Position numbers and translations under genes: made by a program. From Schmidtea nova (taxonomy: Eukaryota): a stretch of DNA of 64,000 nucleotides. The notes beneath the pieces are model-generated. The model saw only the letters and a list, made by a program, of their open reading frames with translations. It had not been told where the DNA came from and made no database searches. Shown one piece after another: positions 44,453-64,000 of the stretch. The first letter of the stretch is position 1; each line of letters starts with the position of its first letter. The stretch is from contig CM097884.1 in the NCBI GenBank assembly GCA_044892505.1, positions 36,642,001-36,706,000 of the forward strand. Reading direction: 5' to 3'.

Positions 44453-44497
44453 GTTGAGGCCAATGAGCCATATTGAATGACCTAGCTAGGCGTTATG

Positions 44498-45268: not shown

Positions 45269-48200
45269 TTGAGAAAAGGAGCAAAGAGTGTCGTAGTAAA
45301 GCCAACGGAAAAGAAAGTCGGTAGCAACAGTAATAAAAAAGACAAAACTAGTACTACAACAAAATCAACAAAAAAGCAGAAAGCCGGCAAAGATAACCCA
45401 CAAGGGAGTAAATCGAGGAAAATAATAAGAGATAAATCGATTACCGAAAACGATAAATTGTCAATAATAAGCAACAGCTCAAGTAACAAAGAAAACCAAG
45501 CCGAACCCAAGGAGAACCAAGCAAGTGAAATAGAGAGCGACGAAACTAACAACGATAATATCGAAGAAATAGAACACGAGATAGAACAAGAAGGAGAAAT
45601 CGACGAAACTAACAACGATAATATCGAAGAAGTAGAAAACGAGGTAGAACCAGAGATAGAAATCAACGCGAGTGATAACGAAAGTATAATATCAGATAAC
45701 GAAGGAATAAGAGAAACAGAAAGCGATTCAAGCTCGAGTAAAACGGAAGACGAACATAACAACGAACTAGAAACAAGAGGAAACGAAAGTAAAATAACTC
45801 AAGACAGCGGAATTGAAATGGGTGAACCAAGAGAAGAAATAAAGGATAAATTTTCAGGAGAACCGTTCAACGGAGATGCGAGTAAATTAGAAACCTTTTT
45901 AAAAGAATTTGGCATATTCGTGGAGGTATGCAAGTGGAAAGCTGAAACAACGGTAAGCAGAATTCAGTTATATTTGAAAGATAGCGCATTGGACCTATAT
46001 TTGGAAGCGAAAAATGGTACCAATCCACCTACAAGCTGGACAGCGATAAAGGATTTTTTCCAACAAACATTTGGAATAAATAAAGTGCTGAGCGAGGCAT
46101 TCATAGAATTCTCAATGAGGAAACAAAAGATGAATGAATCTAATGCGGTATACGCGAGCGAACTGAAAAAATTAGCAAAATCGGTATTCAAGGATGGAGG
46201 TCCAATAAACGAGGAGTTAATGGCAGCTATCTTCATAGGAGGACTAAGAAGACCCGACATAAGAGCGCAAGTAGGATGTCAAGGATGCAAAACCATAGAT
46301 CAAGCGTTAGAAACAGCTAACCGATTCGAATTGCATATGATAGGAAGCGAAGGCAGAATTTATCTAGCCATGGACACAGCGCAAACCGAACCGGAAGTAA
46401 ATCTCAACAATCACATTCCAAATTCGCAACAATTAAACCGACCACCCCCTCAACGAAGGAATGAAGGAAATAAAGTGCAGAACTTTGAAAGCCAAAACAA
46501 TTACAACCCTCAAAGACAAACAAAACAATGTAAAACATGCGGGAAGTTAGGACACTGGCAGCAAGAATGCTATCAAAATTTGAATTGCGGAAAATGTGGA
46601 GTTAAAGGACACTCGGAAAGCAGATGTTCTACAATAATCTGTTTTAATTGCGGACGACCTGGTCACTATTCAAGAAATTGCGGACATAAAAGTAATCAAC
46701 GAGGAAACTGGCAGAGTAATGGGAACCGACCAAATTACGGAAATCAAGCAAATACAGTAAACCGACCAGATTATGGGAACCAACAAGTCAATAATAACAA
46801 TAATCAGAACAAAACCACCCCCAAAGAAATACATTTAATGCAAGAAGTCCAAAGATTGACGGAACTTATAAACAATACGACGAGAGGAAATCCGCAAACC
46901 AATCAACAGCAAATTAGCATGATGAGAAAAATAGAAAGCGAAAACGAACGATTGAATCGAGAAAGTCAAGCACGACACGCTCAGGAATGGGCAAGAATAC
47001 AAAGAGAGGATGAACAAAAACAGCAAGAAAGAGAACGACAACCTCTAAGAATTAACATGCTAAGAGCAACAAACCAAACAGACACTCGCGAGAAAGAAAC
47101 CACACTGGAAATGAATTCGATAAACCCGAATCCAGCCGACAACGAAAGTCGAAAAGAAATAGTACAAAAAGATGAAGAAGTAGAAAAAGAAGCAGAAAAG
47201 GGAGTGGAAACCGAGATAAACCAGGAAGAGAGAAGAAAAATTTGGAAAAAAGGAATGATGGTAATCATGCCCAACGACCATATGTTTCGATTCCAATATA
47301 ACGCAAAAGAAAAGGTGGAAATACTGTTCAATAAAGTAAACCAGATGATTCCAGGAGTGACAAAACTGCCCAGAGAAGCGTTCTTACAAATAGGAGATGC
47401 ACCAACAGTAAAATTAAAATTAACAGATACATGGGAAAACGTGGGAGTAACAGAGACAAAAAGAAATGTGATGAGAATTAAAGAAATAGAACCAGAAGAA
47501 AGTCCACCACCAATACGTCACGAAACCCGAATCCGGCGAATATTTGAAGGAAAAATGATAAGAAGACGTTTAAAAGAGATAGACGAGTTGGGAAAGAAAA
47601 TGGGAAAAGTCGAAGTAATAGAGGACAAGAGTGAACCAACACCAGAAATTGACAAAAACGAACCAGAACCAACGGAGAATATACAAGGAGAAACGAACCA
47701 AACAGCACATATTAATATGTTAAGAAATACCACCAGAGAGTTTTCCGATGAAGAAGAAGATAGTGACATCAGTAGCCTAGCAGGAGACATATTAAATGAA
47801 TCCGAAGACGAAAATAAAGAGAGAGAAGTAATAAAGACCTCAGAACCTACACAGATAAAAGTAGATGAAATCCAGAAATTACTAGATAACTCGCTAGAAG
47901 TAATATATAACGAAGAGTTCATGGACAAGAAACAATATCGGAAATTCATGAAAGCATTACTACAAATGAACTACAAAGAATGGTTACAAGACCGGGAAGT
48001 AGACATGTTGAATCGATACGTAGGGAAATTAATAGAGGAACCACTCCTCAATTACACCATCTCAATAATAATAAATACATCTACACCAAGAATCTGGATC
48101 AAAACTCCATTTACAGACGATATCTACAGATGGGTAGAGGATAGACTAGGGAGCTCATACAAAAACAAATTCATCTATTCGCAGAATAGACTCGTAAAGA

Positions 48201-49000
48201 AAAGAACGCACTTAGTGGAAACAGGTATATGGCCAGGAGAAATAACTCTGTTATCAATATGCGATGAAAAGGAAGAAGAGAACCTACAAGAAGTTGCAAG
48301 GGAGGCAAACACGTGCTTCGAAAGGAGAATAAAACCTCGGTTAGAATACGAGAAAGAACGAGTCTTACGAAAGAATCTAAATTCCCTGATAGAACAAATC
48401 ATACCACAAGTCAAAAAACATAGAAAAGAGTTAATGAGAAGCGAATACGAGAAACTGAAACGATGTATTGAGTGCATACGTGACACAAGTCACACGAGAT
48501 GGTCACAAATCTCACACGACAAATTAATCGCAAAAATGGGAAAAACAATGTTCAGACAAGGGAAAATAACAGATCTAAAAATTTCAGTAGAATTACCTAA
48601 TGAGGACACCAAAGAAATTGAAGTGGTAGCGGATTGCACCATTAAAGAATTAATAAATGTCATCAACGAGACACTAGTGCAAAGAGAACCAGAAGACGAA
48701 TGGGAAGACGACATAATCATACAATACAACGAACATGTATTATGGGATCACGATGAGAGACGATTATATAAAATCGGTATATGGGATAATCACCAAACAA
48801 TCCACGTTAGCAGAATGGACGATACACCCAGAGAAACTGCTAAAGATGAGAAAAGAGAACGGGAACGACGGAAAGAAGTTGTGCATAAATTACAACAAAT
48901 AGTAGAAATTTATCGAAATTGGCGAATTTGGCCAGAATGGGAAAATGTATTAGAAGAACTCAATCTCAACCGACGAATACGAACACCCGTAGAAAAATAA
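45269..49000 (+). CDS. gag: Polyprotein part 1: acidic N-terminus, Gag (capsid ~45840-46350, three CCHC knuckles 46528-46682), ubiquitin-like domains
   Basis: FSGEPFNGDASKLETFLKEF capsid-like start; CKTCGKLGHWQQEC, CGKCGVKGHSESRC, CFNCGRPGHYSRNC. The track start is TTG; the first in-frame ATG is at ~45818. Confidence 0.9.
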   Translation: MRKGAKSVVVKPTEKKVGSNSNKKDKTSTTTKSTKKQKAGKDNPQGSKSRKIIRDKSITENDKLSIISNSSSNKENQAEPKENQASEIESDETNNDNIEEIEHEIEQEGEIDETNNDNIEEVENEVEPEIEINASDNESIISDNEGIRETESDSSSSKTEDEHNNELETRGNESKITQDSGIEMGEPREEIKDKFSGEPFNGDASKLETFLKEFGIFVEVCKWKAETTVSRIQLYLKDSALDLYLEAKNGTNPPTSWTAIKDFFQQTFGINKVLSEAFIEFSMRKQKMNESNAVYASELKKLAKSVFKDGGPINEELMAAIFIGGLRRPDIRAQVGCQGCKTIDQALETANRFELHMIGSEGRIYLAMDTAQTEPEVNLNNHIPNSQQLNRPPPQRRNEGNKVQNFESQNNYNPQRQTKQCKTCGKLGHWQQECYQNLNCGKCGVKGHSESRCSTIICFNCGRPGHYSRNCGHKSNQRGNWQSNGNRPNYGNQANTVNRPDYGNQQVNNNNNQNKTTPKEIHLMQEVQRLTELINNTTRGNPQTNQQQISMMRKIESENERLNRESQARHAQEWARIQREDEQKQQERERQPLRINMLRATNQTDTREKETTLEMNSINPNPADNESRKEIVQKDEEVEKEAEKGVETEINQEERRKIWKKGMMVIMPNDHMFRFQYNAKEKVEILFNKVNQMIPGVTKLPREAFLQIGDAPTVKLKLTDTWENVGVTETKRNVMRIKEIEPEESPPPIRHETRIRRIFEGKMIRRRLKEIDELGKKMGKVEVIEDKSEPTPEIDKNEPEPTENIQGETNQTAHINMLRNTTREFSDEEEDSDISSLAGDILNESEDENKEREVIKTSEPTQIKVDEIQKLLDNSLEVIYNEEFMDKKQYRKFMKALLQMNYKEWLQDREVDMLNRYVGKLIEEPLLNYTISIIINTSTPRIWIKTPFTDDIYRWVEDRLGSSYKNKFIYSQNRLVKKRTHLVETGIWPGEITLLSICDEKEEENLQEVAREANTCFERRIKPRLEYEKERVLRKNLNSLIEQIIPQVKKHRKELMRSEYEKLKRCIECIRDTSHTRWSQISHDKLIAKMGKTMFRQGKITDLKISVELPNEDTKEIEVVADCTIKELINVINETLVQREPEDEWEDDIIIQYNEHVLWDHDERRLYKIGIWDNHQTIHVSRMDDTPRETAKDEKRERERRKEVVHKLQQIVEIYRNWRIWPEWENVLEELNLNRRIRTPVEK

Positions 49001-49105
49001 TGGAACGAGAAAGGAAAATGTTGGGAACCAAAAGAAGGGGAATATGAAGAAGAATATAAAAGAGGAATTGAAGATGACTGCGAACCAGAGATAGGAAGGG
49101 TTTGC

Positions 49106-52100
49106 ATGGTGACAAGGAAAGCTACGCCAATAGACCTAGATGGACCAGAAACAGCGGCCATGTGGTTAGAAAGGGAAAAGCAAAAAACGGAAGAATTCGT
49201 CGAAATATTAAAAACTAATGCGCACGGTAAGAGAAAATTAATAAAGGGTCTCGCAGATTTTTTCGTGGTAAATGGGGAAGATATAACATGCTTGCGTAAA
49301 GTAGCAAAAGCAATCGCGGAATATAAAAGAGTTAACGAGTGGTGTCCGGAACAACTAGACCACGTAATTAGGAAATGGAGAAATCAAGAATTCTCGCAGG
49401 AAATTCCACAGAAAGTACATTTAAGAATAATATACCCAAACAAGGATAAGGAAGAGTTGTGGGTAGGAATAGCAGAAAAAATTCGAGATATTAAAAAGAA
49501 ATTGAGATACGAACCACCATTCCATTTACAACACCAAGGACGATCATTAGATAACAGTTTGGAAATCGGAATAACGCCAGCACAATTAGACCTCATGAAT
49601 ACCTTGACAGTAGAAGCAATAGCGGGTCAACCATTGAAACGTAAAGAAGAAAACCATAAACCACACGGAAGTATAAGTACGCCAAGCCCGATGAAATCAG
49701 TACTAACACCAGGGACAAGTTCAAGACGATCTGAGACAACACCCAGAGGAACCAGAGAAAGGACTCCACCACAACCATACGACGTGGACGAAATTTTAAC
49801 GGATAGCGACGATATGATAGAAGAGTTAACCGAATTAACAAGGGAAAAGGACGATAACATTTTCGAAAGAATACAAGAACTACCTACGACAATACAAATA
49901 ACCAACACCGGAGAAGCAGAAGTCGAAGAAGAAATAATAATAGAAGAAGTAAACGATTTGACAGAAGACGAAACGAGAGGAGCGAATGTCGAAAATGTAC
50001 AATTAACACAAGAAATGGAAAGATGGTTAGAAGAAAGAGCTAACGAACCAAGAGATGTCACCGAAGAAACCGGACGAGCAACAAGGTTTGTGGAAACAGG
50101 TACAGGAATTGATAAACGACCTAGAGGTAGACCTAAGACAGACCCAGCAACTGTAGTTGTAAGAAATAAAGACGAAAAGAGACAAGATCAATGGGAATTA
50201 TGTTTAAGGAAATTAAATAAAATTGCGGAGATGAAAGAAAAAGAGACAACACCAATATGTCAAGGGGAGGAATGGATATCGAAAACGATAATGGAGATAT
50301 TGGCAATAATTGATCCGGAATTAAGAAAATACTGGCGTATAACTGAGATAAGCGAAAAGGCGAAGTCGCTACACAGCGCAATCGCACCCATCTTACCGGA
50401 ATTCATAAAAGAAAAGACGAAGTCAAACCATTTAGACTGGCAAGGAACCACTACGTTAATAAAGAAACTGACAGAAGGAGCGGAAACAGATAACAAATAC
50501 GTAATAGCCATTGCATACACGATCTACAATCTGTTGACACTGAGTAGAGGTCTACCAAAACCCACTGCATTAGAGAGACATATAAAAAATACCGCAAAAA
50601 TTATAGCGAGAGAAATAGAACCATACGTCATTAACAAAGGAGGATGGGAAACATTTATAAAAACTAACCAGAAGAAAACGCAAGCGAAGAATATGAAAAA
50701 GAAATTCGAAAAAATATTGGAAGAGTTAGCAAAAGAACAAGCAGGAACGGGAAACGCGAAGTCATCAATGAATTTGAGTTCTATAATAATGATGATGTTG
50801 ATATGGATGATTAGCACCGATAGCGCAACAGCATTCGAAGTGTTTGATTGCGACCAAATGAAGTTAGGAGAAAAGTATTCATTGAGAGGTACGGAGCAAT
50901 GCAAAGATGCGACTCCAGTAGAGTTGCAAAAGATTAAAAAGGAACAATGGTACCACGTGTATCAAGAAGCAGAACTCATAAAGACAATGGTGAATGAATG
51001 TAAAGTGCAGAAGACGAGATTCGCATTCTACTGCGGGAGAGGACATTATTCAGCAATTGTCATGCCAGGAACGGAAAGAGAACCAATCGTGTTACAAGGA
51101 GAAGACTGCGAAGCACTGTTTAAACATGGAGAAGTAACAACAAGAGATAAAATCAAGATAAGAGGAAAGCCAGGAATGATGATGCAACAGACGTACTATG
51201 TAGCAGGACGGATTACGGGAGGAGAAGGATATTGTCAAGGAGAAACCTACCCGATATTCGGAGTACCCGCAACCAACTTAGTGGTGATGGATACGTATAT
51301 AGTCGAACTAAAAAGCTACGAAGCATTCTTCGAACCAACAACGGGAGAAATGAAAACGTTATCCATGTGTAAAATCGACAGGAGCATGTGTCAAACGGGA
51401 ATGTCAACATTAGTGTACAAACCAAAGGTAAACGAATGTCAGTTACAACTGCTACAAGGAGCAAAGTTCGACGAAATCCAAGGAAAAACGTTCCAGGAAG
51501 AAGACGAGGACGACAAAGATAGAGCAAAGCATCTCAAGGAAGCTTTAGAGAATAAAAGACAACTGAAACCGGATCATAGAGAAAAACGGATAGAGATGAG
51601 AGCCACACCAACAGTGTTGATAACCACAAATCAAGATGTGGGAATGAGATTCATAAAAGGGAAAGCAACCCTTAAGTGTAGTACAACGGTATACGAAACG
51701 AATTACCCAGGAATATATGTGTCAAAACAAGAAGTGCCAAATGCGAAACCCAAAATCGACACAATGGATATCAAACTACACTTGTATGTGAATAATAAAA
51801 TGGATTTCCTATTCCATAGAGGACAAGCCTCATTACAAAAAGTGTACTACGATTTGATAAACAATGATTGTATACTGAATCGAGAAATATTAAAGACAAA
51901 GTTGGCCGTAGCGATTACGAATCCAGATAGCGCGATGCCATTATTACCACTGAGAGAAGGACATTTCGGAAGAGTGGTCGGAGAAGCAATGTACGTATAC
52001 ATTTGCGAAAAAACACTCGCGCCGCTAGCAGCAACAACACAGTTGAAACCTGGAACCTGTACAAATGAGTTAGAAATCGATTACAAAGGAAAAGTACGAT

Positions 52101-55100
52101 ACGTTCAACCGGTGACGAGAATCATCAATCCACCAGGGTTTGAACCAAATCCATTCAACTGTAGTAATGCGTATGGACCGCTTTATCAAAAACCAGATGG
52201 TAAATGGGTTATGTTCCCAGGAAGATCCGAAGTGATAGCACCAAGAGAATTCGAGCTAATGCAGTTGTCAAAGGATAGGCAATTCAGCGACGTAGATGTC
52301 TCAAACAACGGAATATATAGTCCAAAGGATTTAGAAGCAGCAAGGCAGAATATATTATTCCCGGCAAGAAGAGAAGCATTACTGTCAAATATCGTAACGA
52401 TAACGGGAGGAACGGATTATCGAGAAGGACCGAATTATGAACTGTTGTTGTCACCAGCACATTTCAAGAAAGCCACCGAAAATATGATGAAAGCAATGTG
52501 GGGAAGATTTCTGATATTCGGACAAATGATGGCTGGAATACTGGGGGTTATATTAATAATACAAATCGTCAGAGTGATAATAACGCAAATGCTCGCGTGT
52601 TTTGACATCTACAAGAGAGAAAAGAAAGTGAATTGGAAAATGGTAGTAGGGTTTTTACCATTCCTCGCGAAGACGATGGTGTTGCACGGACACTCAAAGG
52701 ACATACATCGAATAAAGAGATTGTTGAAGATACTCGCAAAAATGAAGGGAACAGATGAAGAAGTAGGACGAAAATTTAAAAAGATAATGGATGACGAACA
52801 AGCAAGACAACAGCTCAAGAGAGAAAGAAAAGGTTTATGGGAGAGGATGAAAGGATATAAAACCCAAAATGATTCGAGTGACGACGACGATGACGATGAC
52901 GACTATAAGGGAGGACAAGTGTATAAGAACCAAGCACCCCAATACATCGAAAAGAATCCAGCCGACGCATGGAAATGTTACGCACCCCCACCAACCATGT
53001 ATCAAGAACCACTACAAGGAGGAAAAAATAGCACGATGCAAATGATGCCAATGACAAATGTATATCCCATGATACCAGAAGATTATAAAATGAGAAGATG
53101 TAGAAGCGTAGATCCACAAGGAGATACACACACGATCGCAGTAATGTCATCAAACACAGGTCCAGTATTAACCACGACAATAGAGATTAACGGAAGGGAA
53201 ATCGAAGCAATGATCGACACGGGAGCAAACATTTCCGCCATCGACATCAAATGGATACCACAAGAGCAAAGACGAGAAATAGAAAGGACAAACGTCCATG
53301 TAATTGCATGTAGCAAAGAAGTTGTAGAAGTAGCAGGAAGATGGTGGGTAAAAATACGCCATTTAAACACGGAAATCGATACGTACGTAGCAGTTATACC
53401 AGCATTAAGCGTACCTTGCATCATCGGAACAGATTTGATGCCAGCACTATTTAAAGAGATTGTAATCGACCTCGGAACAATGAGACTAAAGGATCGCACA
53501 GGACAAATATGCGCAATAGAAGCCAAAGTGACAAGTTCAAAGCAAATGATAATACCCGCAAGAAAGGAGAAAATATGTTACGTAAAAATAGATCCGACAA
53601 TCCAAGGGGATATGATTTTCGAACCAAGTAAGAGATTCGAGAAAAGAAAAGCGTTGCCAATGGCAAGAGGACTAGTTAACATAAACGACGATGGAGAAAT
53701 CCCAATAAACGTAGTAAACTTCGATGAAGAGGACAAAATAATATACGAAAACGAAAGATTAGGTAAATTAACCCCAATGATGGATATCGAACTACCAATA
53801 GAAGGGGCAGAGAAAGATAAAGAACCAACCTGGAATATTGATAGTGAATTATTAAATGAGGATCAAAGGAAGCAGCTAGAAAAACTCCTGATAGAGTATA
53901 AGGATATATTTGCAGCATCCGATTTAGATCTAGGAACATGTGAGGTCACACTACATACAATACCATTAACAGATGAAACACCAATTGCATTAAGGCCGTA
54001 CAAATTAGCGGAAGCACAGAAAGCAGTAGCAGAAGCAGAAGTGAAGAAAATGTTGGATGCAGAAGTAATCGAACCAAGTTGTTCACCCTGGCAATTCCCA
54101 GTGGTAATGGTAAAGAAAAAAGACGGAACACAGAGATTCTGCATCGACTATCGAAGATTGAATACAGTGACAAAAAGGGATACTTACCCATTACCAGACA
54201 TTAATGAAATGCTATTAACATTACAAGGAGCAGCATATTTTACGTCGTTAGATCTGAAAAGCGGATATTGGCAAATAAAAATGAAGGAAGAAGATAAGGA
54301 GAAAACTGCCTTTACCATCGGGAGAGATTTATATCAATTTCGGAAAATGCCATTTGGATTAACGAACGCACCAGCATCATTTCAGAGATGCATGAATTTC
54401 GTCACCCACGGAATAAAGCAGTGCATGGTCTACATCGACGACTTATTGATTTACTCTAGTACATTCGAACAACACATACAGGATATTCGAGATGTATTCG
54501 TTAGACTTAGACAATGGAAGTTAAAACTCAAGCCATCAAAATGCGATTGGGCAAAAGAAAAGGTTACATTTTTAGGACATATAGTGTCAGCAAAAGGAAA
54601 AGAACCGGATCCTAGAAACATCGACAAGGTAAAAGAATGTCCAGCACCAAAAACAATAACCCAAATACAAGAATTTCTCGGACTATGTGGATATTATAGA
54701 AAGTTTATAAAAGATTACGCCGGAATAGCAAAACCTATACAGGAGCTGGTAAAGAAAGATGTATCATTCATATGGGGAGACGAACAGCAAACAGCATTCG
54801 AGACATTAAGAGATAAACTGATAACCGCACCCATATTGGTACACCCAGACTTCAAGAAGCCATTCCTACTTGCAACAGATGCAAGCGGATATGCAGCAGG
54901 AGCCGTATTAGGACAATACGACGACGAAGGAAAAGAACGGGTAATCGGATATTATAGCCGGACATTCAAAAAGCATGAGAAAAATTACTCAGTAACAGAA
55001 CGGGAAGCATTAGCAATTATATTAGCTATTAAACACTTTAAATATTTACTATGGGGTCACATCATCTGCATAACAACAGATCACCAACCGCTTGTATGGT

Positions 55101-56908
55101 TAGGACAGCACAAGGAAACATCCAGTAGATTAATGCGATGGGCAATGCAGTTACAGGAGTACTCACCAGACATAAAATTTAAATCAGGACGAGCGAATGC
55201 GAATGCAGATTGTATGTCAAGACTGACATTTCCAGAACTAACCGATCCTGATGTACAACGAATTTGTGTATTAATAGCGGAGGATTTAGATTTTAGTGAG
55301 TTAAAGAAAGATCAACAAGAAGACAAAGAATTAGGACAAATCATAGAGTTCCTAACATCTCGAAATATGGAAGTATTCAAGGATAATAAGGAACTAAAGG
55401 AACATATAGGAAAATATCAACATCGCTACATAATAAATAAAGGATGGTTGTTAATACAAGACGGAGAAAAGAGATTGATGTGTTTACCGGAAAACAGAAG
55501 GAAAGAGATAATGATCCAGTACCATGATGGGAAATTAGGAGGTCATATGTCCGAGAAGAAGACAATAAATCGTATGAGACAAAAATATTATTGGCGAACA
55601 ATGGAGGAAGATATAAAAGAATGGATTAAAAATTGTCTAACTTGCGCAACCAGAAAGGATAGTGGGAAGAAATGGAAGAACCCACTACAACCAATGCCAA
55701 TACCAGCAGAGCCAATGACAACTATAGCAATGGACGTAATAGGACCATTACCAGAAAGTTTAAACGGAAATATTTATATATTGGTAATAACGGATTATCT
55801 GACGAAATTCCCGGAAGCATTTGCCATGCAAGACCAAAAAGCAAAAACCGTAGCAAAAATTCTAGTGGAAGAAATATGTTGCAGATACGGAACTCCAAAA
55901 CAAATACTCACAGACCAAGGAACTAATTTTATGAGTGAATTATTGAACGAGGTGACAAACTACTTCAGAATAGCAAAATTGAGAACTTCACCATATCACC
56001 CGCAAACGAATAGACAAACGGAGCGATTCAATGGTACATTGATCAGAATGTTATCAAATTACGTCAGCAGACATCAAACTGATTGGGACGAATACATAAA
56101 ATTATGTTTAATGGCATACCGAATGTCGATACATGCAGCAACAAAACTAAGCCCATTTCAACTTATGTATGGAAGAGAATGCAACATGCCCATAGATTTA
56201 GAGTATCAGCCACCATTATCGCAATATATGGAAGATGACGACTACGTAACCAAATTCAAAGAAAGAATGCAGGAAATATGGAAAACGGCAGAACTCAACA
56301 TTAAATTTTATCAGGAAAGTTATAAGGACTTACACGACCAAAAGAAAAATGTTAAAGCGAACGATCTAAAACCAGGAGATTGGGTGATAATAGAAACTCC
56401 CGAAATAATACCAGGAACTGTTAAGAAACTCCAAAGACCTGGAAGAGGACCTTATGAAATTATATACAAAAAAGACAATAATGTCAAAGTTAAGCTAGTA
56501 AATCGACCATTAATACGACCCATATATGTAAACACTTGCAGATGTAAGAAAGTACCTAAAACGATAACTACAACACCAGAGAATCGAATAATAACCAGAT
56601 CACAAACAGCCAGGATAAATATGCTCAGAGCTAATGCAACTGAAGACGACAAAGCAGAAATAAGGCAAAAAGAAATCAGAAATAAAGAAATTATATTGAA
56701 GGCGAGAGAGATAATGGGAAGATGGCATGTTAGAGACGAAGTAGGCATATCAAGGGATATTAGACATATAATTAGTCGTTACGCACAAGGATTACCAACC
56801 GAACCAATTATTTCTGAATTATTGGAAAAAATCCCTGAAATACTCTTATTGAAAGATGTAGGAGGACAACCAGCCTTACATAATGCGATAGAGTGTAAAA
56901 ACATTTAA
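49106..56908 (+). CDS. pol: Polyprotein part 2: Ubl, Bcl-2-like domain, signal peptide, chuvirus-like glycoprotein, aspartic protease, dUTPase-like spacer, RT, RNase H, integrase (GPY/F), first ankyrin repeat
   Basis: MIDTGA (~53216); YIDD (54431); ATDAS...EREALA RNase H; HHCC, MDVIGP, TDQG, ERFNGTL and RGPYEI integrase motifs. Same frame as parts 1 and 3. Confidence 0.95.
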   Translation: MVTRKATPIDLDGPETAAMWLEREKQKTEEFVEILKTNAHGKRKLIKGLADFFVVNGEDITCLRKVAKAIAEYKRVNEWCPEQLDHVIRKWRNQEFSQEIPQKVHLRIIYPNKDKEELWVGIAEKIRDIKKKLRYEPPFHLQHQGRSLDNSLEIGITPAQLDLMNTLTVEAIAGQPLKRKEENHKPHGSISTPSPMKSVLTPGTSSRRSETTPRGTRERTPPQPYDVDEILTDSDDMIEELTELTREKDDNIFERIQELPTTIQITNTGEAEVEEEIIIEEVNDLTEDETRGANVENVQLTQEMERWLEERANEPRDVTEETGRATRFVETGTGIDKRPRGRPKTDPATVVVRNKDEKRQDQWELCLRKLNKIAEMKEKETTPICQGEEWISKTIMEILAIIDPELRKYWRITEISEKAKSLHSAIAPILPEFIKEKTKSNHLDWQGTTTLIKKLTEGAETDNKYVIAIAYTIYNLLTLSRGLPKPTALERHIKNTAKIIAREIEPYVINKGGWETFIKTNQKKTQAKNMKKKFEKILEELAKEQAGTGNAKSSMNLSSIIMMMLIWMISTDSATAFEVFDCDQMKLGEKYSLRGTEQCKDATPVELQKIKKEQWYHVYQEAELIKTMVNECKVQKTRFAFYCGRGHYSAIVMPGTEREPIVLQGEDCEALFKHGEVTTRDKIKIRGKPGMMMQQTYYVAGRITGGEGYCQGETYPIFGVPATNLVVMDTYIVELKSYEAFFEPTTGEMKTLSMCKIDRSMCQTGMSTLVYKPKVNECQLQLLQGAKFDEIQGKTFQEEDEDDKDRAKHLKEALENKRQLKPDHREKRIEMRATPTVLITTNQDVGMRFIKGKATLKCSTTVYETNYPGIYVSKQEVPNAKPKIDTMDIKLHLYVNNKMDFLFHRGQASLQKVYYDLINNDCILNREILKTKLAVAITNPDSAMPLLPLREGHFGRVVGEAMYVYICEKTLAPLAATTQLKPGTCTNELEIDYKGKVRYVQPVTRIINPPGFEPNPFNCSNAYGPLYQKPDGKWVMFPGRSEVIAPREFELMQLSKDRQFSDVDVSNNGIYSPKDLEAARQNILFPARREALLSNIVTITGGTDYREGPNYELLLSPAHFKKATENMMKAMWGRFLIFGQMMAGILGVILIIQIVRVIITQMLACFDIYKREKKVNWKMVVGFLPFLAKTMVLHGHSKDIHRIKRLLKILAKMKGTDEEVGRKFKKIMDDEQARQQLKRERKGLWERMKGYKTQNDSSDDDDDDDDYKGGQVYKNQAPQYIEKNPADAWKCYAPPPTMYQEPLQGGKNSTMQMMPMTNVYPMIPEDYKMRRCRSVDPQGDTHTIAVMSSNTGPVLTTTIEINGREIEAMIDTGANISAIDIKWIPQEQRREIERTNVHVIACSKEVVEVAGRWWVKIRHLNTEIDTYVAVIPALSVPCIIGTDLMPALFKEIVIDLGTMRLKDRTGQICAIEAKVTSSKQMIIPARKEKICYVKIDPTIQGDMIFEPSKRFEKRKALPMARGLVNINDDGEIPINVVNFDEEDKIIYENERLGKLTPMMDIELPIEGAEKDKEPTWNIDSELLNEDQRKQLEKLLIEYKDIFAASDLDLGTCEVTLHTIPLTDETPIALRPYKLAEAQKAVAEAEVKKMLDAEVIEPSCSPWQFPVVMVKKKDGTQRFCIDYRRLNTVTKRDTYPLPDINEMLLTLQGAAYFTSLDLKSGYWQIKMKEEDKEKTAFTIGRDLYQFRKMPFGLTNAPASFQRCMNFVTHGIKQCMVYIDDLLIYSSTFEQHIQDIRDVFVRLRQWKLKLKPSKCDWAKEKVTFLGHIVSAKGKEPDPRNIDKVKECPAPKTITQIQEFLGLCGYYRKFIKDYAGIAKPIQELVKKDVSFIWGDEQQTAFETLRDKLITAPILVHPDFKKPFLLATDASGYAAGAVLGQYDDEGKERVIGYYSRTFKKHEKNYSVTEREALAIILAIKHFKYLLWGHIICITTDHQPLVWLGQHKETSSRLMRWAMQLQEYSPDIKFKSGRANANADCMSRLTFPELTDPDVQRICVLIAEDLDFSELKKDQQEDKELGQIIEFLTSRNMEVFKDNKELKEHIGKYQHRYIINKGWLLIQDGEKRLMCLPENRRKEIMIQYHDGKLGGHMSEKKTINRMRQKYYWRTMEEDIKEWIKNCLTCATRKDSGKKWKNPLQPMPIPAEPMTTIAMDVIGPLPESLNGNIYILVITDYLTKFPEAFAMQDQKAKTVAKILVEEICCRYGTPKQILTDQGTNFMSELLNEVTNYFRIAKLRTSPYHPQTNRQTERFNGTLIRMLSNYVSRHQTDWDEYIKLCLMAYRMSIHAATKLSPFQLMYGRECNMPIDLEYQPPLSQYMEDDDYVTKFKERMQEIWKTAELNIKFYQESYKDLHDQKKNVKANDLKPGDWVIIETPEIIPGTVKKLQRPGRGPYEIIYKKDNNVKVKLVNRPLIRPIYVNTCRCKKVPKTITTTPENRIITRSQTARINMLRANATEDDKAEIRQKEIRNKEIILKAREIMGRWHVRDEVGISRDIRHIISRYAQGLPTEPIISELLEKIPEILLLKDVGGQPALHNAIECKNI
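50768..52700 (+). CDS. env: Envelope glycoprotein region, Jingchuvirales/chuvirus G-like (putative class III fusogen)
   Basis: Signal SSIIMMMLIWMISTDSATA|FEVFDC; ECKVQKTRFAFYCG; YVNNKMDF...YYDLINNDC; GEAMYVYIC; NGIYSPKDLEAARQNILFP; TM at 52508-52600. The cysteine spacing matches my recollection of chuvirus G. Confidence 0.78.
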
Positions 56909-56953
56909 AGAGCAAAAGAATTCCTAAAAATCGCAAAAGAAACAAACCAAAAC

Positions 56954-59900
56954 TTGGACATAGGGAATCGGGAACAAGAAACTCCATTAATGACAGCCGC
57001 AATCCACCAAGCAGATAAAGAAATGATAGATCTATTGATAAAAGCTCATTTCAGTTGGACAGAACGAGATAGAGAGGACAAAACAGTGCTAAATCACGTA
57101 ATATGGAGTTCTCACCAACCAATGCTGAAATACATAATAGCTAACTCCACTTGGGAGATAGACGAACTAGTTAAAGGAGACATTATCAAAGAGGCAATCA
57201 AAATTGGTAAATGCAACACGATCCGTAAGTTAATCAAATGGAAACGACCAGAAGATGATACATGGGTCTTAGACATAAACGAAGTATACAGCGAAGGACA
57301 AAACGCACTGTTAAGATACCTTTTGAAATTTACTTGTGATCAGAAGACATTACTAACCTTATTAGACAGAGGAAACATAAACATCACAAAGAATGAAGAA
57401 GAATACAAATTCGATAAAGAGAAGGAAGCCTTATTCAATAAGATTAGGAAATGGTGTGCGAAACCACTTGATAAACTAATAACATACAAAGACATAAACA
57501 ATTTTAACGAGAAATACCAGACGATAGTAAGCGAATATGAGGAATTAGTAAAAATCTTAAACCATCCCGAAAAATGCAAACAGGTTTTAGAGAAAAAAGA
57601 AAGAGAAAGTAACAAGAAACTCACACCACTCTTCAAAGCAGAAGCACCATACCAAGCTAGACTAGATGCGATACAAGAAAAAGCAAAAGAATTGTTACCG
57701 GAATTCGAGAATAGTAAACATGCACTGGAAATACTCGGCGCATTAGTTGAAAAAGTACACGCATACGCAAAAGGAACTTACAACGGAAACGACATAGTAA
57801 TAATAAAAAAGGAGATGCCAGTAACATTCCTATTACCAAAAGACGGAATAATGCCCATACATAGAGCTTTACGAAATGGCAAAGATAGGAAAGTAATGGA
57901 AATTGCAAGAGTAATGCTAAATTGCGGAAGCAATATGAATATGATAGACGAGAAAGGAGATACACTTATGGTATTTGCAGCAAGGGCCAAAACGAAAACA
58001 AAGGTATTAGAAGAACTATACAAAGCAGGTGCAGGACTTACAGGAAAGACAGATAAAGATAATTCGATATTGGATGTAGCATTATTAACACACAATTGGG
58101 AAATGGTCAATTTCATTAAAACCGTCCCAAATCAGGAAGAAATAGATCACCTAACTGAGACGGTCAAGAAACCCAGTGTACTAGCAATGATGAACAACGT
58201 CGAATTAACAGAATCAATACTTACGTGGATAAATCCTAATACTAACGAACCAGCATTCAGGATTAATAAGTTTACAGAACATAACCAAAACTGGTGTATA
58301 AGAAGTGCCTTAATAACGTATAAATGGCCAGAGATATTGAAGATGTTTATGGAAAGAAAGGATCTAAGAATCACAACCAGCCCGAAAGAAGAAAAATACA
58401 CAGGCAAATGGAAAGAATTGATGAAGACATACATCAACAATTGGATCAAGGCCAAAAAGGAAATCTTAGAATATAAATCCACAAACAAAGTAATACCGGA
58501 GCAGGTAGAAACACAAGAATTTGAGGCAAGTAATCTAACGACATTAGCATATGCAAAATTGATAGAAGAAATCAATGTCGAGGACGACATTTTCGACGAG
58601 CCAGGGGGAGATGACAACACAGATAGTGACGACGGTAACAACTCAGAAAATTCAAGCGATCACGAACCACCCGATAAAGAGGAAAACGAGAGAAAAGACA
58701 AGAAACGAGACAAGGAAGGAAAGAAAGGTGAAGATGAAAAACAAAGAGATGAAGAGAGAGAACAAGGAACAAACGACCAAGGAGACACCCAAAGAACAGG
58801 TTATAAATCAACCATAAAACCATTCTTCAAACCAGAATTACTATTACTAACAATGATTATAACGTTAATTAATCCAAGTCAGGGAATGACATGTGAAGAA
58901 AGGGCAATAATACAAATAAAAAACGCAAAAGGAATCGAACGAGTATGTTGGTCGAAAAAGGACAAAACCACGGAACAAAATAGCCCGATGGATTGCAGAA
59001 TCTCAAAACACGAGCAAGAGATCATAGAGATCAATGACTTAGATCTAGATACCTGGTACAAAATATGCACCGTTAGAAAACAAAAGCATCCAAGATCACA
59101 CAACACAATCGCATGTGCAAAATACCAAACACCTAAAGCAGCCATGACAATACAACAGTCACCCAAAGGAGATTACATCCTCGGAAAATGTGGAAGAACA
59201 GAGACACAGGGAACAGAAAACAAAAAACCCCAGGTAATAGATAAGCAAACAACACCAACTATACGAATTACAATAAAGAGGCCCGAAGCAAGAGTTGCCA
59301 CAAACGAAACCGAAAGAGTGTCTTACCAAATGGAAGTATTATGCTTAGCACTCATACTAATAATGATAAAACGATTAGAGGAAGGAATAGAAATTGAAAC
59401 TATGACAATAACAGAAGTAGAAGATACACAGAATACTAACATAAAATGTTGGGCAAGGAATAACGAGGAAATCGGCGTAAATGAAATAAGGAAAAGTCGA
59501 AAACCAACAACGAATAAAGTAATTAAAGTATCCAAAGTAAAAGCGGATAAGACGTACAAACTATGCCTACTAGAAAAAGAGACAAACAAGAAAGGTACCA
59601 CAAAATGTAAAACATTCCAACCTGGAGAGGTAATAAAGTTCAGAAGGAGAACGAGGAAGAGAAATAAACAAATCAAGCAGAAACTAAACATAACATTAGA
59701 AATAAAAGAAATAGAACCAAATGTGAAAGGAGTATGCTGGAGGAAGTACGAAAAAGAAACGAATGAAAGAAAGACACCACAATGTCGAACAAGCACAGGA
59801 GCAACGACGATACAAATAAAAGGTTTAGAAAGTAAACAAACTTACGAAATATGTTTGGTAAAGAAAAATGATCAGATAACGATTAACGACCTAGAATGCG

Positions 59901-62287
59901 GAATATACACCACTTCATCCGGAACAAGAACTAAAACGATAACACGAAAAAATAAAAGAAGACAACGAAACAAAGGGAAACCGAAGTACACCACTACCTT
60001 TAAAAACAATAAACAACCGATAAGCCAAGAAGTTACGACAAAATCCGAGAAAAAGACATCAGCAACTCTGACATTATGGAAAATAGAGAATAAAACATTG
60101 GAGATATGTTGGATAATAGTCCAGAAATATATAAGAAGACAATCAAGAGAGTGCAGAAAAACAAATAAAGAAATCAAGATCGAAAAACTACAATTTAATA
60201 GCGAGTATGAAGTATGTGCCATAGAAAAAACGGACGCACTAGGAAACCAACAAGAAAGATGCGTAACCTACTATACACCAGTAAACGCAACATCAAAAGG
60301 AATAACAAGGAAACTCGAATTCAGGGAACTAAGCCAAACGAATGAACAAATGGACGCAGAAAAAACAATAACCGACCCTCAAGCAAAATGGACACCTGAA
60401 GAAGTTATCAAAGAAGTCAAAAGAAAGCAAGAGGAACGAGAACAATTAATGAGAAAACTAAAGGGACAATACGGAATAATGTTCAACCAAAGCGAACCTA
60501 TACCAACAGACGAGAATAAAGAAATTAAAGAACTAATCGGCTTAGGAATACTAACAGCAACCATACCAGTAATAATCGCGTTATCAGCTATATGGATACG
60601 CAAGATAAGCCCAAGAAAATCAACAACCCAATGGCTAAATATAGATAATACAAGCCATGGAGTAGAAATACTAGAAGGAAAAGCACGAGAAGAACCAAAT
60701 AAGAAAGAAGCGAAAAGCGGAAAACTAGGAATAAACAACAAAGACAAGGAAATAAAAGAGATTAAAGGCAAAGAGAAAAAATATGAAAGGCGGACCAGAA
60801 GCCTACCGCAGAGTTCAAAATGGTTGGGTCTAACAATAATATTGACATTAATCAATAGGGAAGAAGCAATAAACCCACAGACAAGGATAAAAGTAATAAA
60901 TGTCCAGGAAGTCGAGAAAATATGTTGGTATAGAGAAGATGAACCAATTGGAGAAAATAACCCACTAAAATGCATAATCAGAAAATCCGACCAGGATATC
61001 GTACGAATAGAAGAAATGGATGGAGGAACCATGCATCGGATATGCATAATAGAAAAGGAAAAGAAGTCGGGGCTACCTAAGACAGTCGTATGCCAGAAAT
61101 ATGAAACGCCTAGACTTGAATGGTATAGAGTAAAACCAACAAAGAAAGAAATCAAAAACACAATAGATCAACCAGCAACTCAGATAAGAAACACAACGGA
61201 TAAACCAGGAGAAGGGGAGAGAAGCATAAATAACACGAGAGAAGGAGCATCACCCCAACAAGATGTCGTATGCATAGCGTTAATAATAGCAATGTCCAAA
61301 CGTATCAACAAAGGAATAACAATAGAACAAATGGCCATGACAATAAGGAGAAAAGGCCGGAGTAGCAACAAAATATGCTGGGGATGGTACAACGAACAAA
61401 AAGAATACCAAGTTCAGACAAGCGACGAATCACGAACAAACAAGGAAACCGAAATACAAGAAATACAAATGGACGGAGAAGGAAGTATATGTATATGGGA
61501 GAAAGGAATCCAAGAAGATCAACCCGGAATAGAAAAGTGCAAGACATTCCAAAAAGGAGAAATTCTGAAATTCGATGAAAAAGAATTAACCAAAACAGAA
61601 AGAACTCTGACATTAACAGGACTTGATCAGACAGTGAAAGGAATATGTTGGACAAAACATAACCCAGAAGGAGAAGAAGGTAACCTAACCCACTGTAAAG
61701 AAACAGGGAATAAGGAAAATGTCGAATTAAAGAAAATGGAAGTAAATAGGACATACGCGATATGTACCTTCACCAGAAAAGGTTCAGAAAAACCAGAATG
61801 CGGATTATATCAGATCTCAGAGAAACTACAACAACAGATCGAACCAGGAAACATGGAAAACCGAACAAAAGAAAATAACGTCAAACAACTACTAAACCGC
61901 CATTGGTCTACCCAAGAAGTAATGAACAAAGTCAAGAGTCAAATACAGAAAGAGAAGAAGCCAGAGGCTCAAACCCAAAATGAGATAAAAGCGAATCAGA
62001 AGAAAATCAAAGCAACAAACCGTGGAAAAACAGTAATAGGACTAATCAGTATAGGAATATTAATAGCATATGGGATAATGACGACAAGCATGATAATATA
62101 TTGGAGATACAGAAAGAAAAACAAAGCGACAGCCATACAATGGCCAGATATAAAAATTATGAAGCAAAGAATAGAAATACCAGAAGAGATACAGCAAGAA
62201 TTCCAAAGAAGAACGAAAGGTAAAGAATTCTGGAAACAAATAGAAGATGAAGAACGATACGAGGAAAAGACGATAATGATGGTATAG
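56954..62287 (+). CDS. Polyprotein part 3: ankyrin repeats, then two related membrane modules with FN3-like domains
   Basis: ETPLMTAA, KTVLNHVI, PIHRAL, DTLMVFAA and SILDVAL ankyrin motifs; repeated CW...C...IxxLxxxxxYxIC...C..YxT FN3-like units; six hydrophobic segments. Confidence 0.85.
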   Translation: MDIGNREQETPLMTAAIHQADKEMIDLLIKAHFSWTERDREDKTVLNHVIWSSHQPMLKYIIANSTWEIDELVKGDIIKEAIKIGKCNTIRKLIKWKRPEDDTWVLDINEVYSEGQNALLRYLLKFTCDQKTLLTLLDRGNINITKNEEEYKFDKEKEALFNKIRKWCAKPLDKLITYKDINNFNEKYQTIVSEYEELVKILNHPEKCKQVLEKKERESNKKLTPLFKAEAPYQARLDAIQEKAKELLPEFENSKHALEILGALVEKVHAYAKGTYNGNDIVIIKKEMPVTFLLPKDGIMPIHRALRNGKDRKVMEIARVMLNCGSNMNMIDEKGDTLMVFAARAKTKTKVLEELYKAGAGLTGKTDKDNSILDVALLTHNWEMVNFIKTVPNQEEIDHLTETVKKPSVLAMMNNVELTESILTWINPNTNEPAFRINKFTEHNQNWCIRSALITYKWPEILKMFMERKDLRITTSPKEEKYTGKWKELMKTYINNWIKAKKEILEYKSTNKVIPEQVETQEFEASNLTTLAYAKLIEEINVEDDIFDEPGGDDNTDSDDGNNSENSSDHEPPDKEENERKDKKRDKEGKKGEDEKQRDEEREQGTNDQGDTQRTGYKSTIKPFFKPELLLLTMIITLINPSQGMTCEERAIIQIKNAKGIERVCWSKKDKTTEQNSPMDCRISKHEQEIIEINDLDLDTWYKICTVRKQKHPRSHNTIACAKYQTPKAAMTIQQSPKGDYILGKCGRTETQGTENKKPQVIDKQTTPTIRITIKRPEARVATNETERVSYQMEVLCLALILIMIKRLEEGIEIETMTITEVEDTQNTNIKCWARNNEEIGVNEIRKSRKPTTNKVIKVSKVKADKTYKLCLLEKETNKKGTTKCKTFQPGEVIKFRRRTRKRNKQIKQKLNITLEIKEIEPNVKGVCWRKYEKETNERKTPQCRTSTGATTIQIKGLESKQTYEICLVKKNDQITINDLECGIYTTSSGTRTKTITRKNKRRQRNKGKPKYTTTFKNNKQPISQEVTTKSEKKTSATLTLWKIENKTLEICWIIVQKYIRRQSRECRKTNKEIKIEKLQFNSEYEVCAIEKTDALGNQQERCVTYYTPVNATSKGITRKLEFRELSQTNEQMDAEKTITDPQAKWTPEEVIKEVKRKQEEREQLMRKLKGQYGIMFNQSEPIPTDENKEIKELIGLGILTATIPVIIALSAIWIRKISPRKSTTQWLNIDNTSHGVEILEGKAREEPNKKEAKSGKLGINNKDKEIKEIKGKEKKYERRTRSLPQSSKWLGLTIILTLINREEAINPQTRIKVINVQEVEKICWYREDEPIGENNPLKCIIRKSDQDIVRIEEMDGGTMHRICIIEKEKKSGLPKTVVCQKYETPRLEWYRVKPTKKEIKNTIDQPATQIRNTTDKPGEGERSINNTREGASPQQDVVCIALIIAMSKRINKGITIEQMAMTIRRKGRSSNKICWGWYNEQKEYQVQTSDESRTNKETEIQEIQMDGEGSICIWEKGIQEDQPGIEKCKTFQKGEILKFDEKELTKTERTLTLTGLDQTVKGICWTKHNPEGEEGNLTHCKETGNKENVELKKMEVNRTYAICTFTRKGSEKPECGLYQISEKLQQQIEPGNMENRTKENNVKQLLNRHWSTQEVMNKVKSQIQKEKKPEAQTQNEIKANQKKIKATNRGKTVIGLISIGILIAYGIMTTSMIIYWRYRKKNKATAIQWPDIKIMKQRIEIPEEIQQEFQRRTKGKEFWKQIEDEERYEEKTIMMV

Positions 62288-62412: not shown

Positions 62413-62769
62413 ATGACCGAACAGGACGAAACAACTGAAATAACTATGGCTATGAGATGGAAAGCACAATGTGATTTATTAGTACGAACAGTCAACTCAT
62501 TACAGAACCAATTAGCGGAAAGACAAATGTTATTATCAGAAAGTTATAACAACTGTTTCGAACAATTACACAGAATAGAAGAACAACAAAGAGTGATAAC
62601 CGAGCTCACCAGAGAAAATCAAAATATAAGCAATATCAATCAAAGACAAGCAATAGAAATAAACCATTTAACACGAGGAGAAAGAGAAGGATCCGAAGAA
62701 GGATGGATGAGTTGGGTAATAAATAGACTAAACAACGAAGCGGAACCAGATTCAACGAATGAGCCATAG
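62413..62769 (+). CDS. 118-aa coiled-coil accessory ORF
   Basis: Q/E-rich heptads, element-like codon style, TTTAG-AAA-ATG context. Confidence 0.6.
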   Translation: MTEQDETTEITMAMRWKAQCDLLVRTVNSLQNQLAERQMLLSESYNNCFEQLHRIEEQQRVITELTRENQNISNINQRQAIEINHLTRGEREGSEEGWMSWVINRLNNEAEPDSTNEP

Positions 62770-62861
62770 ATAAATAAAGCGGAAAATTGTAAATATGTAA
62801 AAATAAAAACAAGAAAAACCAAAAATAAATGACAAGTCGAATGTATATATTATTGTAGAGA

Positions 62862-64000
62862 ATGGACAGAGAAGAACGAATAATCGAGATTTTGAGATTA
62901 GAAAACAGAAAATGGAGCAAGAGGCTCACATGCGGAAAATGTAACAATTTATTACGAGAACCCAGACAAACGATATGTGGATGTAGAATATGTACAAAAT
63001 GTATACAAGAATTAGATACCACCGGAATAACAACATGCCCAGAATGTAAAGAAGGAGGAATAGTGTTGGACGAAACCAGAACGGACAAAGCAACCCAAAG
63101 AGAAATTATGAGCACCACAACGGAGTGCGTAAATACACCTTGTACATGGCAAGGACAAATAAGTAATCTAGAAAACCATATGGAAAAGTGCGAGGAGAAA
63201 AGAACCGAATGCGAGAAGTGCCAACAGACAATAATTCTAAAGAAGAGAGAACAACACAAGGAAGAATGTAAAGAAGAAGAAATCGCATGCGAGTATTGTG
63301 AAGCCCGAGAAACAAGGAGAAAAATCGAAGAGGAACACTTGAATATAACAGAGGAGAAAGTATGCAGACAATATGTAAGTAAATGTCCAAACAATTGCGA
63401 AATAACAGAAGAAGTAAAGTTACATGAACATTGGAAAGTATGTACCGAAAGACCAAGAGAATGTCCATATAACAAACAGGGATGCAAAGAAAAGCGGACG
63501 CGGCAATCAATGAAACAACACCTAGAAGAAGCAGCACTAACACATGTGGAAATGACAAACGAAACGACAAAAGAAACGGAACAGACAATCCAGAAATTAG
63601 AAAAAGAAGTAGAATCACATAAGATAATGATGAGTTTACTACTAGAAACAAGAGAGCAGTTTGAACTAACTCGCGAAAGAATGGAAAAGAAAATAATAGC
63701 CATAGAAGAATTAGGAAAAGGAATGAAAATACAATATAATCAATTAATACGAGAAATTGACGAAAGAAGGGACTTACCAATCGCACCTTACCTATGGAAA
63801 GTAACAGATTTCAGAGACAAACTAGCAGAAGCCAGAAATATGACGAAAACAGCAGTAATAAGCCCACCATTTTATTTATGGAAAAACGGGGTTAAAATAA
63901 GATTGAAAGTATACCCAAATGGAGACGGAAGAGGACAAGGAACACACGTGTCAATATTTTTCTCGCTATGTAAAGGAGAATACGATGACCTAATAGAATG
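62862..64000 (+). CDS. TRAF: Intronless TRAF-family protein (RING, TRAF zinc fingers, coiled coil, MATH/TRAF-C); 3' end beyond the window and absent from the ORF track
   Basis: My translation: CGKCNNLLREPRQTICGCRICTKC...CPEC; CVNTPCTWQGQISNLENHMEKC; CPYNKQGC...HLEE; YLWKVTDF...SPPFY...LKVYPNGDGRGQGTHVSIFFSLCKGEYDDLIEW. Confidence 0.93.
   Translation, partial: MDREERIIEILRLENRKWSKRLTCGKCNNLLREPRQTICGCRICTKCIQELDTTGITTCPECKEGGIVLDETRTDKATQREIMSTTTECVNTPCTWQGQISNLENHMEKCEEKRTECEKCQQTIILKKREQHKEECKEEEIACEYCEARETRRKIEEEHLNITEEKVCRQYVSKCPNNCEITEEVKLHEHWKVCTERPRECPYNKQGCKEKRTRQSMKQHLEEAALTHVEMTNETTKETEQTIQKLEKEVESHKIMMSLLLETREQFELTRERMEKKIIAIEELGKGMKIQYNQLIREIDERRDLPIAPYLWKVTDFRDKLAEARNMTKTAVISPPFYLWKNGVKIRLKVYPNGDGRGQGTHVSIFFSLCKGEYDDLIE

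Follow-up and report, generated by a model that had tools for sequence, protein, structure and literature searches.

A recently inserted LTR retrotransposon, which runs over the right end of the window (the whole stretch of 64,000 nucleotides of Schmidtea nova DNA that was analyzed), carries a complete TRAF gene, and this gene is under purifying selection. By analogy with known systems, we give a probability of roughly 0.55 to the reading that the gene was captured by an element of the Burro type, is kept intact by selection, and promotes survival, or blunts stress or immune death signaling, in those cells in which the element is active.

The TRAF Gene and Its Domains

The frame that begins with the ATG at 62862 is open up to the end of the window and reaches its stop in the adjoining genomic DNA (Table 1). 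A full array of RING, zinc fingers, coiled coil, and MATH domain had been proposed from the letters by the sequence-only reading, and domain searches, structure alignments, and structure prediction all confirm that the ORF encodes a complete TRAF. Pfam recognizes the MATH domain (MATH_2, E 6e-21, 75.5 bits against a cut-off of 32; TRAF-mep_MATH, E 3e-19) and the zinc fingers (zf-TRAF, E 3e-8, 34.6 bits against a cut-off of 27), which also align with TRAF6 RZ structures. The AlphaFold model has a mean pLDDT of 86.6 and consists in its C-terminal part of a helix at residues 225–303, with block pLDDT values of 83–92 save at its end, followed by a beta-sandwich at 310–448. Foldseek matches this model to the TRAF domains of TRAF3, TRAF1, TRAF2, and TRAF5 (E about 1e-16) and to the RING–zinc finger part of TRAF6 (E 4e-11).

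Pfam RING models match weakly, with E values of 0.02–0.1 that fall under the cut-off. The RING reads C24-x2-C27...C39-G-C41-R-I-C44-x2-C47...C59-x2-C62; its eight zinc ligands, the fourth included, are all cysteines, at the canonical spacing of the TRAF2, TRAF5, and TRAF6 RINGs. CGCRIC, correctly read at first sight in place of CGHRFC, occupies the site of CGHRF/YC in canonical TRAFs.

The A-rich codon style that had been likened to that of the element is equally real. A3 is 0.56, and the RSCU of the gene correlates with that of the element's pol and polyprotein C-terminus at r=0.92–0.93, as against 0.21–0.65 for seven host TRAFs. The distance from the polyprotein stop, given earlier as 575 bp, amounts to 574 nt from 62287 to the ATG; the 118-aa ORF that lies in this gap had been overlooked.

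Table 1. Features of the element and of its TRAF gene. Window-equivalent positions continue the numbering beyond the window
Feature	Position	Strand	Basis or remarks
5' LTR, 3169 bp, TG...CA	39641..42809	+	AAAG precedes; PBS-like TGGGGGCTCAGCCGGGAT follows
153-aa accessory ORF upstream of polyprotein, C-terminal C3HC4 RING (PF13920)	43137..43598	+	Pfam; also in sister family B
Single-frame polyprotein, two in-frame stops in present copy	45236..62287	+	Pfam, ORF reading
First cassette spacer, polyprotein stop to 118-aa ORF	62288–62412	+	Belongs to the spacer set enriched in TGTA/TGTAHATA
118-aa coiled-coil-like accessory ORF, first in 3' cassette	62413..62769	+	dN/dS 0.09; orthologue in family B
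92-nt spacer before TRAF	62770..62861	+	Four TGTA, two TGTAHATA, three AATAAA; T-rich TAG acceptor-like site 3 nt before ATG
TRAF gene, 458 aa	62862..64000, on to window-equivalent 64238	+	ATG at 62862, ORF reading, Pfam, AlphaFold, Foldseek
RING, Cys replacing usual His (C24–C62)	62931..63047	+	Aligned with TRAF2/5/6 RINGs
TRAF-type zinc fingers, about aa 89–222	63126..63527	+	Pfam, alignment
Coiled coil, predicted helix, aa 225–303	63534..63770	+	AlphaFold model
MATH/TRAF-C domain, aa 310–448, cut by window end	63789..64000	+	Pfam, PDB sequence search, Foldseek
ORF353, coiled coil	window-equivalent 64352–65413	+	ORF reading beyond window
ORF189, two hydrophobic segments	window-equivalent 65489–66058	+	ORF reading beyond window
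3' LTR	window-equivalent 66262–69432, beyond window	+	Then AAAG

The Carrier Element

The TRAF gene sits between two LTRs, 2 kb before the 3' LTR. Its placement inside the element, which the sequence-only reading had assumed, is thereby borne out, the 3' boundary lying outside the original window. The LTRs are identical at 3168 of 3169 positions, apart from a 2-nt indel, and both flanks carry the AAAG target duplication; the carrier is a recent insertion of 29.8 kb.

By its layout the carrier is a Ty3/gypsy element with an envelope gene and belongs to the Burro type of planarians. The polyprotein contains a gag zinc knuckle, a weak BCL-2-like stretch, a Monjiviricetes-type fusion glycoprotein (env) in frame between gag and protease, RT, RNase H, and integrase in gypsy order, and ankyrins. 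The BCL-2-like stretch gives E values of 1.4–2, at the BH2 end, with a three-row profile; it has no match in Pfam or in the Atlas, and no useful match in the PDB when searched as a single sequence. In the polyprotein of the present copy, Pfam finds neither MATH nor BIR. The RING of the 153-aa upstream ORF is one that we take to be IAP/MDM2-like.

Burro and GYPSM1 are giant gypsy-like planarian LTR retrotransposons (Jurka 2007; Grohme et al. 2018, as given in PMC6431247). The carrier resembles Burro, as described in the available part of PMC6431247, in its length of ~30 kb, its multi-kb LTRs, its one huge polyprotein, the CCHC knuckles of gag, a TRAF-C/MATH domain, the in-frame fusion glycoprotein of mononegavirus type that separates gag from protease, the RT-RH-IN region, the ankyrins, and, putatively, the BCL-2-like stretch (weak here). 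What the review reports of a TRAF in the published elements is the MATH_TRAF_C domain only, placed in ORF1 for S. mediterranea and, for D. tigrina, in an accessory ORF that lies upstream, whereas the element here has a whole RING-ZF-CC-MATH gene downstream of the polyprotein, within a four-gene cassette.

Several minor features of the element may be recorded here. The PBS-like TGGGGGCTCAGCCGGGAT at 42810–42833 lies 6 nt past the LTR, is also found in family B, and presumably resembles a tRNA-Pro site. Two ORFs lie inside the LTR (41079–41555, 158 aa, and 41745–42341, 198 aa) and are repeated in the 3' LTR; neither has a Pfam match. A related LTR ORF is found 1.5 kb from one host TRAF (L117), on the opposite strand. 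The 5' untranslated region holds tandem repeats of 29 nt and 32 nt at 43987–44660. The polyprotein C-terminus (59000–62287) is built of repeated Cys-containing segments with hydrophobic stretches between them, and the matching region of family C gives a weak fn3 match (E 0.005); from their sequence, these segments are possibly membrane-anchored receptor-like pieces.

Copy Number and Element Families

All 40 matches scored in the TRAF search, out of 556 candidates, cover the whole query at 97–100%, and at all 30 loci picked by TRAF there is element DNA on both sides. A further 39 copies were picked by integrase similarity, to avoid selection by TRAF, and 8 kb was fetched for each. In thirty-four of these the TRAF is present at its place in full (open in 27, broken in 7) and two have part of one, while the 8 kb fetched for the remaining three contains none. 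Those three have a same-strand TRAF match 22–26 kb away, perhaps behind insertions. Counted by exact 20-mer matches, which give lower bounds, TRAFs within such elements number at least 173 in family A, that of the present copy, and at least 114 in family B (reversed controls, 0); the figure of 173 comes from the better-shared 20-mer, another having given 112.

The TRAF of family B has 470 residues, is 52% identical to that of family A, and occupies the same position in the same cassette of an element with 3.3-kb LTRs. Between the two genes pS is 0.75 and pN 0.28, with synonymous sites near-saturated. The RT-IN region of family A is 87% identical to that of family B and 82% to that of a Burro1-like family C. 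Family C, with an LTR of about 4 kb, has only a MATH domain, inside the polyprotein after gag, as does Burro1 in the account of PMC6431247. This MATH domain groups weakly (95/54) with the TRAFs of A and B, which suggests a single capture with fusion later. At two loci, L111 and the family B locus L112, deletions appear to fuse MATH to neighboring ORFs.

Selection on the TRAF Gene

Thirty-two family A sequences were compared after four tandem near-duplicates and copies with coverage below 90% had been dropped. They give a dS of 0.117, a dN of 0.015, and a ratio of 0.13, and the same ratio is obtained from six copies of family B; the element TRAF is thus under purifying selection. By domain, the ratio in family A is 0.12 for the RING, 0.15 for the zinc fingers, 0.13 for the coiled coil, and 0.08 for MATH, and all eight RING cysteines are kept in 31 of the 32 copies. 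Elsewhere in the element, values are 0.27 at the polyprotein end and 0.07–0.26 in the other cassette ORFs. Variants shared among family A copies have a ratio of 0.11 (41 nonsynonymous, 92 synonymous) and private variants one of 0.30 (78 nonsynonymous, 64 synonymous, and 4 stops). Tighter constraint on shared than on private variants would be the mark expected from selection through transposition.

For a neutral passenger, a functionless retrocopy of a host TRAF, it could be said that 7 of the 34 full-length copies are broken. The ratio of 0.13 in both families rules this explanation out for practical purposes, and it sits poorly with the retention of the gene across the A–B split and with its full adoption of the element's codon use.

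Host TRAFs and the Origin of the Element Gene

The host MATH search yielded 2419 candidates, of which 150 were scored. About 77 of these are element-like, as counted from coordinates and frame lengths, and ~73 are host-like, mostly at C2:405–455 Mb; 43 loci were fetched, with 2 others. Large tandem TRAF/MATH host arrays lie near the C2 end in that interval, many of them with RING and MATH in separate frames, and smaller single-frame host clusters are found at C3:43.8–43.9, C2:416.8, C2:452.9–453.0, and C1:154.6 Mb. In the 11 fetched array genes that have both parts, RING and MATH are in separate frames, and an acceptor-like TTTCAG is present in four of the five examined. Array genes have A3 values of 0.27–0.37, against 0.45–0.56 in element TRAFs.

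The sequence-only reading had singled out the Cys of the RING as a variant. Of the distinct host RINGs, 20 fit a pattern in which either H or C is permitted, and every one of the 20 has Cys, so the replacement is a host-lineage trait rather than an element novelty. Ile stands at the site in one more host gene, and His is retained in a TRAF4-like one. The 150 public relatives divide into 22 with Cys (the Dendrocoelum TRAF is one), 76 with His, and 52 that gave no RING match. These counts rule out an element-specific change; Cys for His is usual among triclad TRAFs. The absence of introns, also noted from the letters, is correct insofar as a single frame lies inside the LTRs, but it is not diagnostic: 9 of the 20 host genes with a matched RING likewise run from RING to MATH in a single frame, so that intronlessness is no marker of capture, and as proof of capture it is ruled out.

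The element TRAF is about 26–31% identical to full-length host genes. The best-sampled tree has 40 rows and was built as a quick LG+G4 version; the other full-length tree is also a quick one. In the 40-row tree, the element TRAFs cluster with four unnamed public proteins (SH-aLRT 99). Their clade is nested in one of 30 rows (SH-aLRT 97), to which all seven sampled Cys-RING host genes belong, together with Dendrocoelum TRAF-4 and Dugesia japonica TRAF2-like A; the TRAF4-like host gene that keeps His falls outside. The phylogeny thus places the element gene within the triclad Cys-RING group, but no host gene of the present genome lies inside the A+B clade in any tree that holds such genes. The nearest host branch is unstable. 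In the MATH tree, from which 16 frames that were short or without MATH had been dropped and near-duplicates skipped, it consists of host genes L113 and L123 (97/91); in a two-part tree the element TRAF is sister to all Cys-RING host genes; and in two further trees, the 40-row one included, the host sister is an open fork. The element rows fail the composition test. AU tests under LG models reject neither a grouping of array genes with the element clade (p=0.24, 0.135) nor a tree in which the element TRAF joins the TRAF2-like proteins of the outgroup (p=0.12, 0.105). Judged from these sequences, it is likely that the gene was captured, long ago, from the host lineage's own TRAF family.

Known triclad TRAF2-like proteins (Dugesia japonica TRAF2-like A, ADF47429.1; Dendrocoelum lacteum TRAF-4, T1DBK6; Smed-TRAF-1/2 and 2A/B, described in PMC7586133) share the architecture and the clade of the element TRAF, and the Dendrocoelum protein shares its Cys RING as well. 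The element gene differs from these host TRAFs in its low identity to them, its A-rich codons, its mobility, and its hundreds of copies. The four public proteins in the element clade (P0016, P0029, P0040, and P0150) have the K/E/R/N-rich make-up of the element TRAF and are, by sequence, likely to be element-borne TRAFs of other planarians; their grouping suggests that gene sets may come to list TRAFs of the element type as if they belonged to the host.

It had been suggested that retroelement-borne TRAFs contribute to the TRAF/MATH expansion reported in planarians. As regards raw ORF counts the suggestion stands, given the copy numbers above, but the tandem arrays of the host lie outside the element clade in every tree that includes them. 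A count of 121 MATH domains has been published (PMC6109357). The TRAF expansion is not connected with elements in the available parts of PMC6109357, PMC11410931, or PMC7586133, the last of which contains no mention there of 'transpos' or 'Burro'. Where planarian TRAF/MATH genes are counted in transcriptomes or gene models, copies borne by elements can be among them.

A stronger proposal would be that the copies are kept for the benefit of the host, as a domesticated supply of TRAFs, and that elements seeded the host arrays. The element-like half of the scored MATH matches, the AU tests that do not reject arrays together with the element clade, and the four public proteins could all be cited for it. 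The proposal is nevertheless very unlikely, and seeding of the arrays is unsupported by the sequences: the A+B clade contains no host-type gene, the array genes have host codons and split frames, and blastn finds no similarity to the family A LTR, or to the internal region up to the TRAF, at any of 19 host loci. The stronger constraint on shared variants, combined with the broken copies, is also the pattern of selection through transposition.

An Operon-Like 3' Cassette

The TRAF is the second of four ORFs, of 118, 458, 353, and 189 residues, between the polyprotein and the 3' LTR. The spacers measure 125/92/113/75 nt in family A and 123/91/89/73 nt in family B. Of the 14 accessory ORFs in the two families, 12 have a YAG no more than 4 nt from the ATG, compared with 79 of 518 background ATGs of the elements. 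The corresponding counts for T-rich acceptor-like sites are 10 of 14 and 13 of 518, with a T-rich threshold that was set after the sites had been seen. Ahead of the TRAF, the site is conserved in each of the 34 copies whose start was found.

The spacers are also enriched in TGTA, with 15 occurrences against 2.1 in shuffled sequence for family A and 14 against 1.9 for family B; none of 5000 shuffles reaches the observed values. TGTAHATA occurs 7 times in 405 nt of family A spacers and not at all in 19.8 kb of coding sequence, and 6 times in 376 nt and not at all in 6.9 kb, respectively, in family B. UGUAHAUA is the Pumilio element, and UGUA is a helper motif for poly(A) addition. With spacers of about 100 nt, 3'-end signals, and acceptor-like sites before most of the ATGs, the cassette is, at the level of sequence features, operon-like in both families.

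Expression of the element TRAF from its own processed mRNA, by way of the acceptor-like site before its ATG, seems plausible. In the flatworm Macrostomum, operons with spacers near 100 bp are resolved by SL trans-splicing (PMC8629364), and the cassette might be processed in the same manner; cis-splicing from an upstream donor would fit the motifs equally well. Four contig-type sequence runs aligned over L031:1–7700, the genomic stretch that completes the gene, cover LTR and flank; 15 of their 23 joints were viewed, none has GT..AG ends, and the runs speak neither for nor against expression. The arrangement hints at a way in which numerous accessory genes might be expressed by a retroelement whose hosts use trans-splicing.

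A bolder picture may be sketched, and we hold it only tentatively. Burro elements could be complex retrovirus-like agents with a captured cell-death toolkit (a full TRAF, an IAP-type RING, and a BCL-2-like stretch) in a true eukaryotic operon. The SL machinery of the host would separate the genes of the 3' cassette into individual mRNAs, and these would be tuned to stem cells by the Pumilio sites of each spacer. If this were true, no full-length TRAF genes of some planarians would be more common than those borne by elements, which would account for part of the reported 'expansion'.

Relation to Published Elements and Viral TRAFs

Two components of the present finding are already in print, namely MATH/TRAF-C in Burro, in an accessory ORF among other places (PMC6431247), and a TRAF in a DNA virus (PMC3352826). 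ORF111L of the megalocytivirus ISKNV resembles the element TRAF in that a viral genome carries a TRAF of host origin, made up of RING, coiled coil, and MATH domain, whose closest relatives are the TRAFs of the host group (PMC3352826). It belongs to a large DNA virus of fish, has 296 residues, and is reported to be pro-apoptotic through TRADD and caspase-8, whereas the element TRAF has an endogenous, reverse-transcribing carrier, keeps the zinc-finger array, and has 458 residues. Among the papers listed, literature searches found no full TRAF architecture in a retrotransposon, no report of selection on one, and no operon-like cassette or SL-resolved retroelement operon; Grohme et al. 2018 and its supplements lie outside their coverage and may show such an ORF. 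Within that coverage, and in the part available, PMC6431247 is the only source that links TRAF-C to Burro. What had been a MATH domain annotation in Burro becomes a selected, full-length host-signaling gene that is present hundreds of times across two families.

Possible Function

Arkhipova and Yushenova noted BCL2-like, BIR, and MATH domains in Burro elements and proposed that these elements meddle with apoptosis and ubiquitination (PMC6431247). The sequence of the TRAF suggests how this might be done. The protein would trimerize through its coiled coil and MATH domain and enter complexes of host TRAFs or receptors, either by itself or in hetero-oligomers. The sequence-only reading had proposed that retroelement-borne TRAFs could rewire TNF/TLR signaling. 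The RING may act as a scaffold or heterodimer partner of the TRAF2/3/5 type more than as a stand-alone K63 ligase of the TRAF6 type. Its first zinc loop, CGKCNN, is like those of TRAF2 (CSACRN) and TRAF5 (CAFCHS) and unlike that of TRAF6 (CPICLM), in which the Ile/Leu has a role in Ubc13 binding. Linker-helix residues D75 and R80 align with zebrafish TRAF6 Arg126, a residue tied to ubiquitin activation and RING heterodimers (PMC5702613). The MATH groove is partly kept relative to TRAF3, with SSSF changed to TSTS and SGCP to AGEP, and its binding partners may therefore differ from those of host TRAFs.

The net effect would be pro-survival. RNAi of planarian TRAFs raises cell death, and host TRAFs are needed for survival (PMC7586133); in a related planarian, loss or knock-down of PIWI derepresses BURRO1, which is then expressed in differentiated cells (PMC8532177). 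It is on these two observations, together with the IAP-type RING, the weak BCL-2-like stretch, the kept linker Arg, the TRAF2/5-like first RING loop, and the partly kept MATH groove, that we favor a pro-survival adaptor.

Retroviral accessory proteins send host restriction factors for ubiquitination. It is accordingly worth considering the element TRAF as an active E3 ligase, or substrate adaptor, directed against a host restriction factor, such as an antiviral protein or one of the piRNA pathway, and not mainly concerned with death signaling. The near-complete retention of the RING cysteines at a RING dN/dS of 0.12, the kept linker Arg, a MATH groove diverged from that of TRAF3, and the second RING gene of the element would all suit such an activity, as would the derepression of BURRO1 on PIWI knock-down (PMC8532177). 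We regard it as unlikely in view of the first zinc loop, which is TRAF2/TRAF5-like and not TRAF6-like; the TRAF2 RING appears not to bind E2 (PMC5702613).

The opposite polarity, a pro-apoptotic or signal-activating TRAF, has its precedent in ISKNV ORF111L, which binds TRADD and activates caspase-8 (PMC3352826). A related suggestion, prompted by the fusion glycoprotein and by the hydrophobic segments of ORF189 and of the polyprotein C-terminus, is that the TRAF acts with membrane proteins of the element to turn on signaling that aids particle release or cell proliferation. Both seem rather more unlikely, since a genome-resident element in hundreds of copies would gain little from killing host cells, and inspection of the element's tails by eye reveals no clear TRAF-binding motif. 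The published idea of meddling with apoptosis and ubiquitination is now open to direct tests by RNAi and biochemistry.

Sequence Around the Insertion

Two further features of the window lie upstream of the element. Immediately before the insertion, at 38330–39304, there is an open frame of 324 residues with host-like codons and no Pfam match. At 18400–24400, long inverted repeats flank a G/T-skewed region of 21-nt repeats, a structure that is possibly a DNA transposon.
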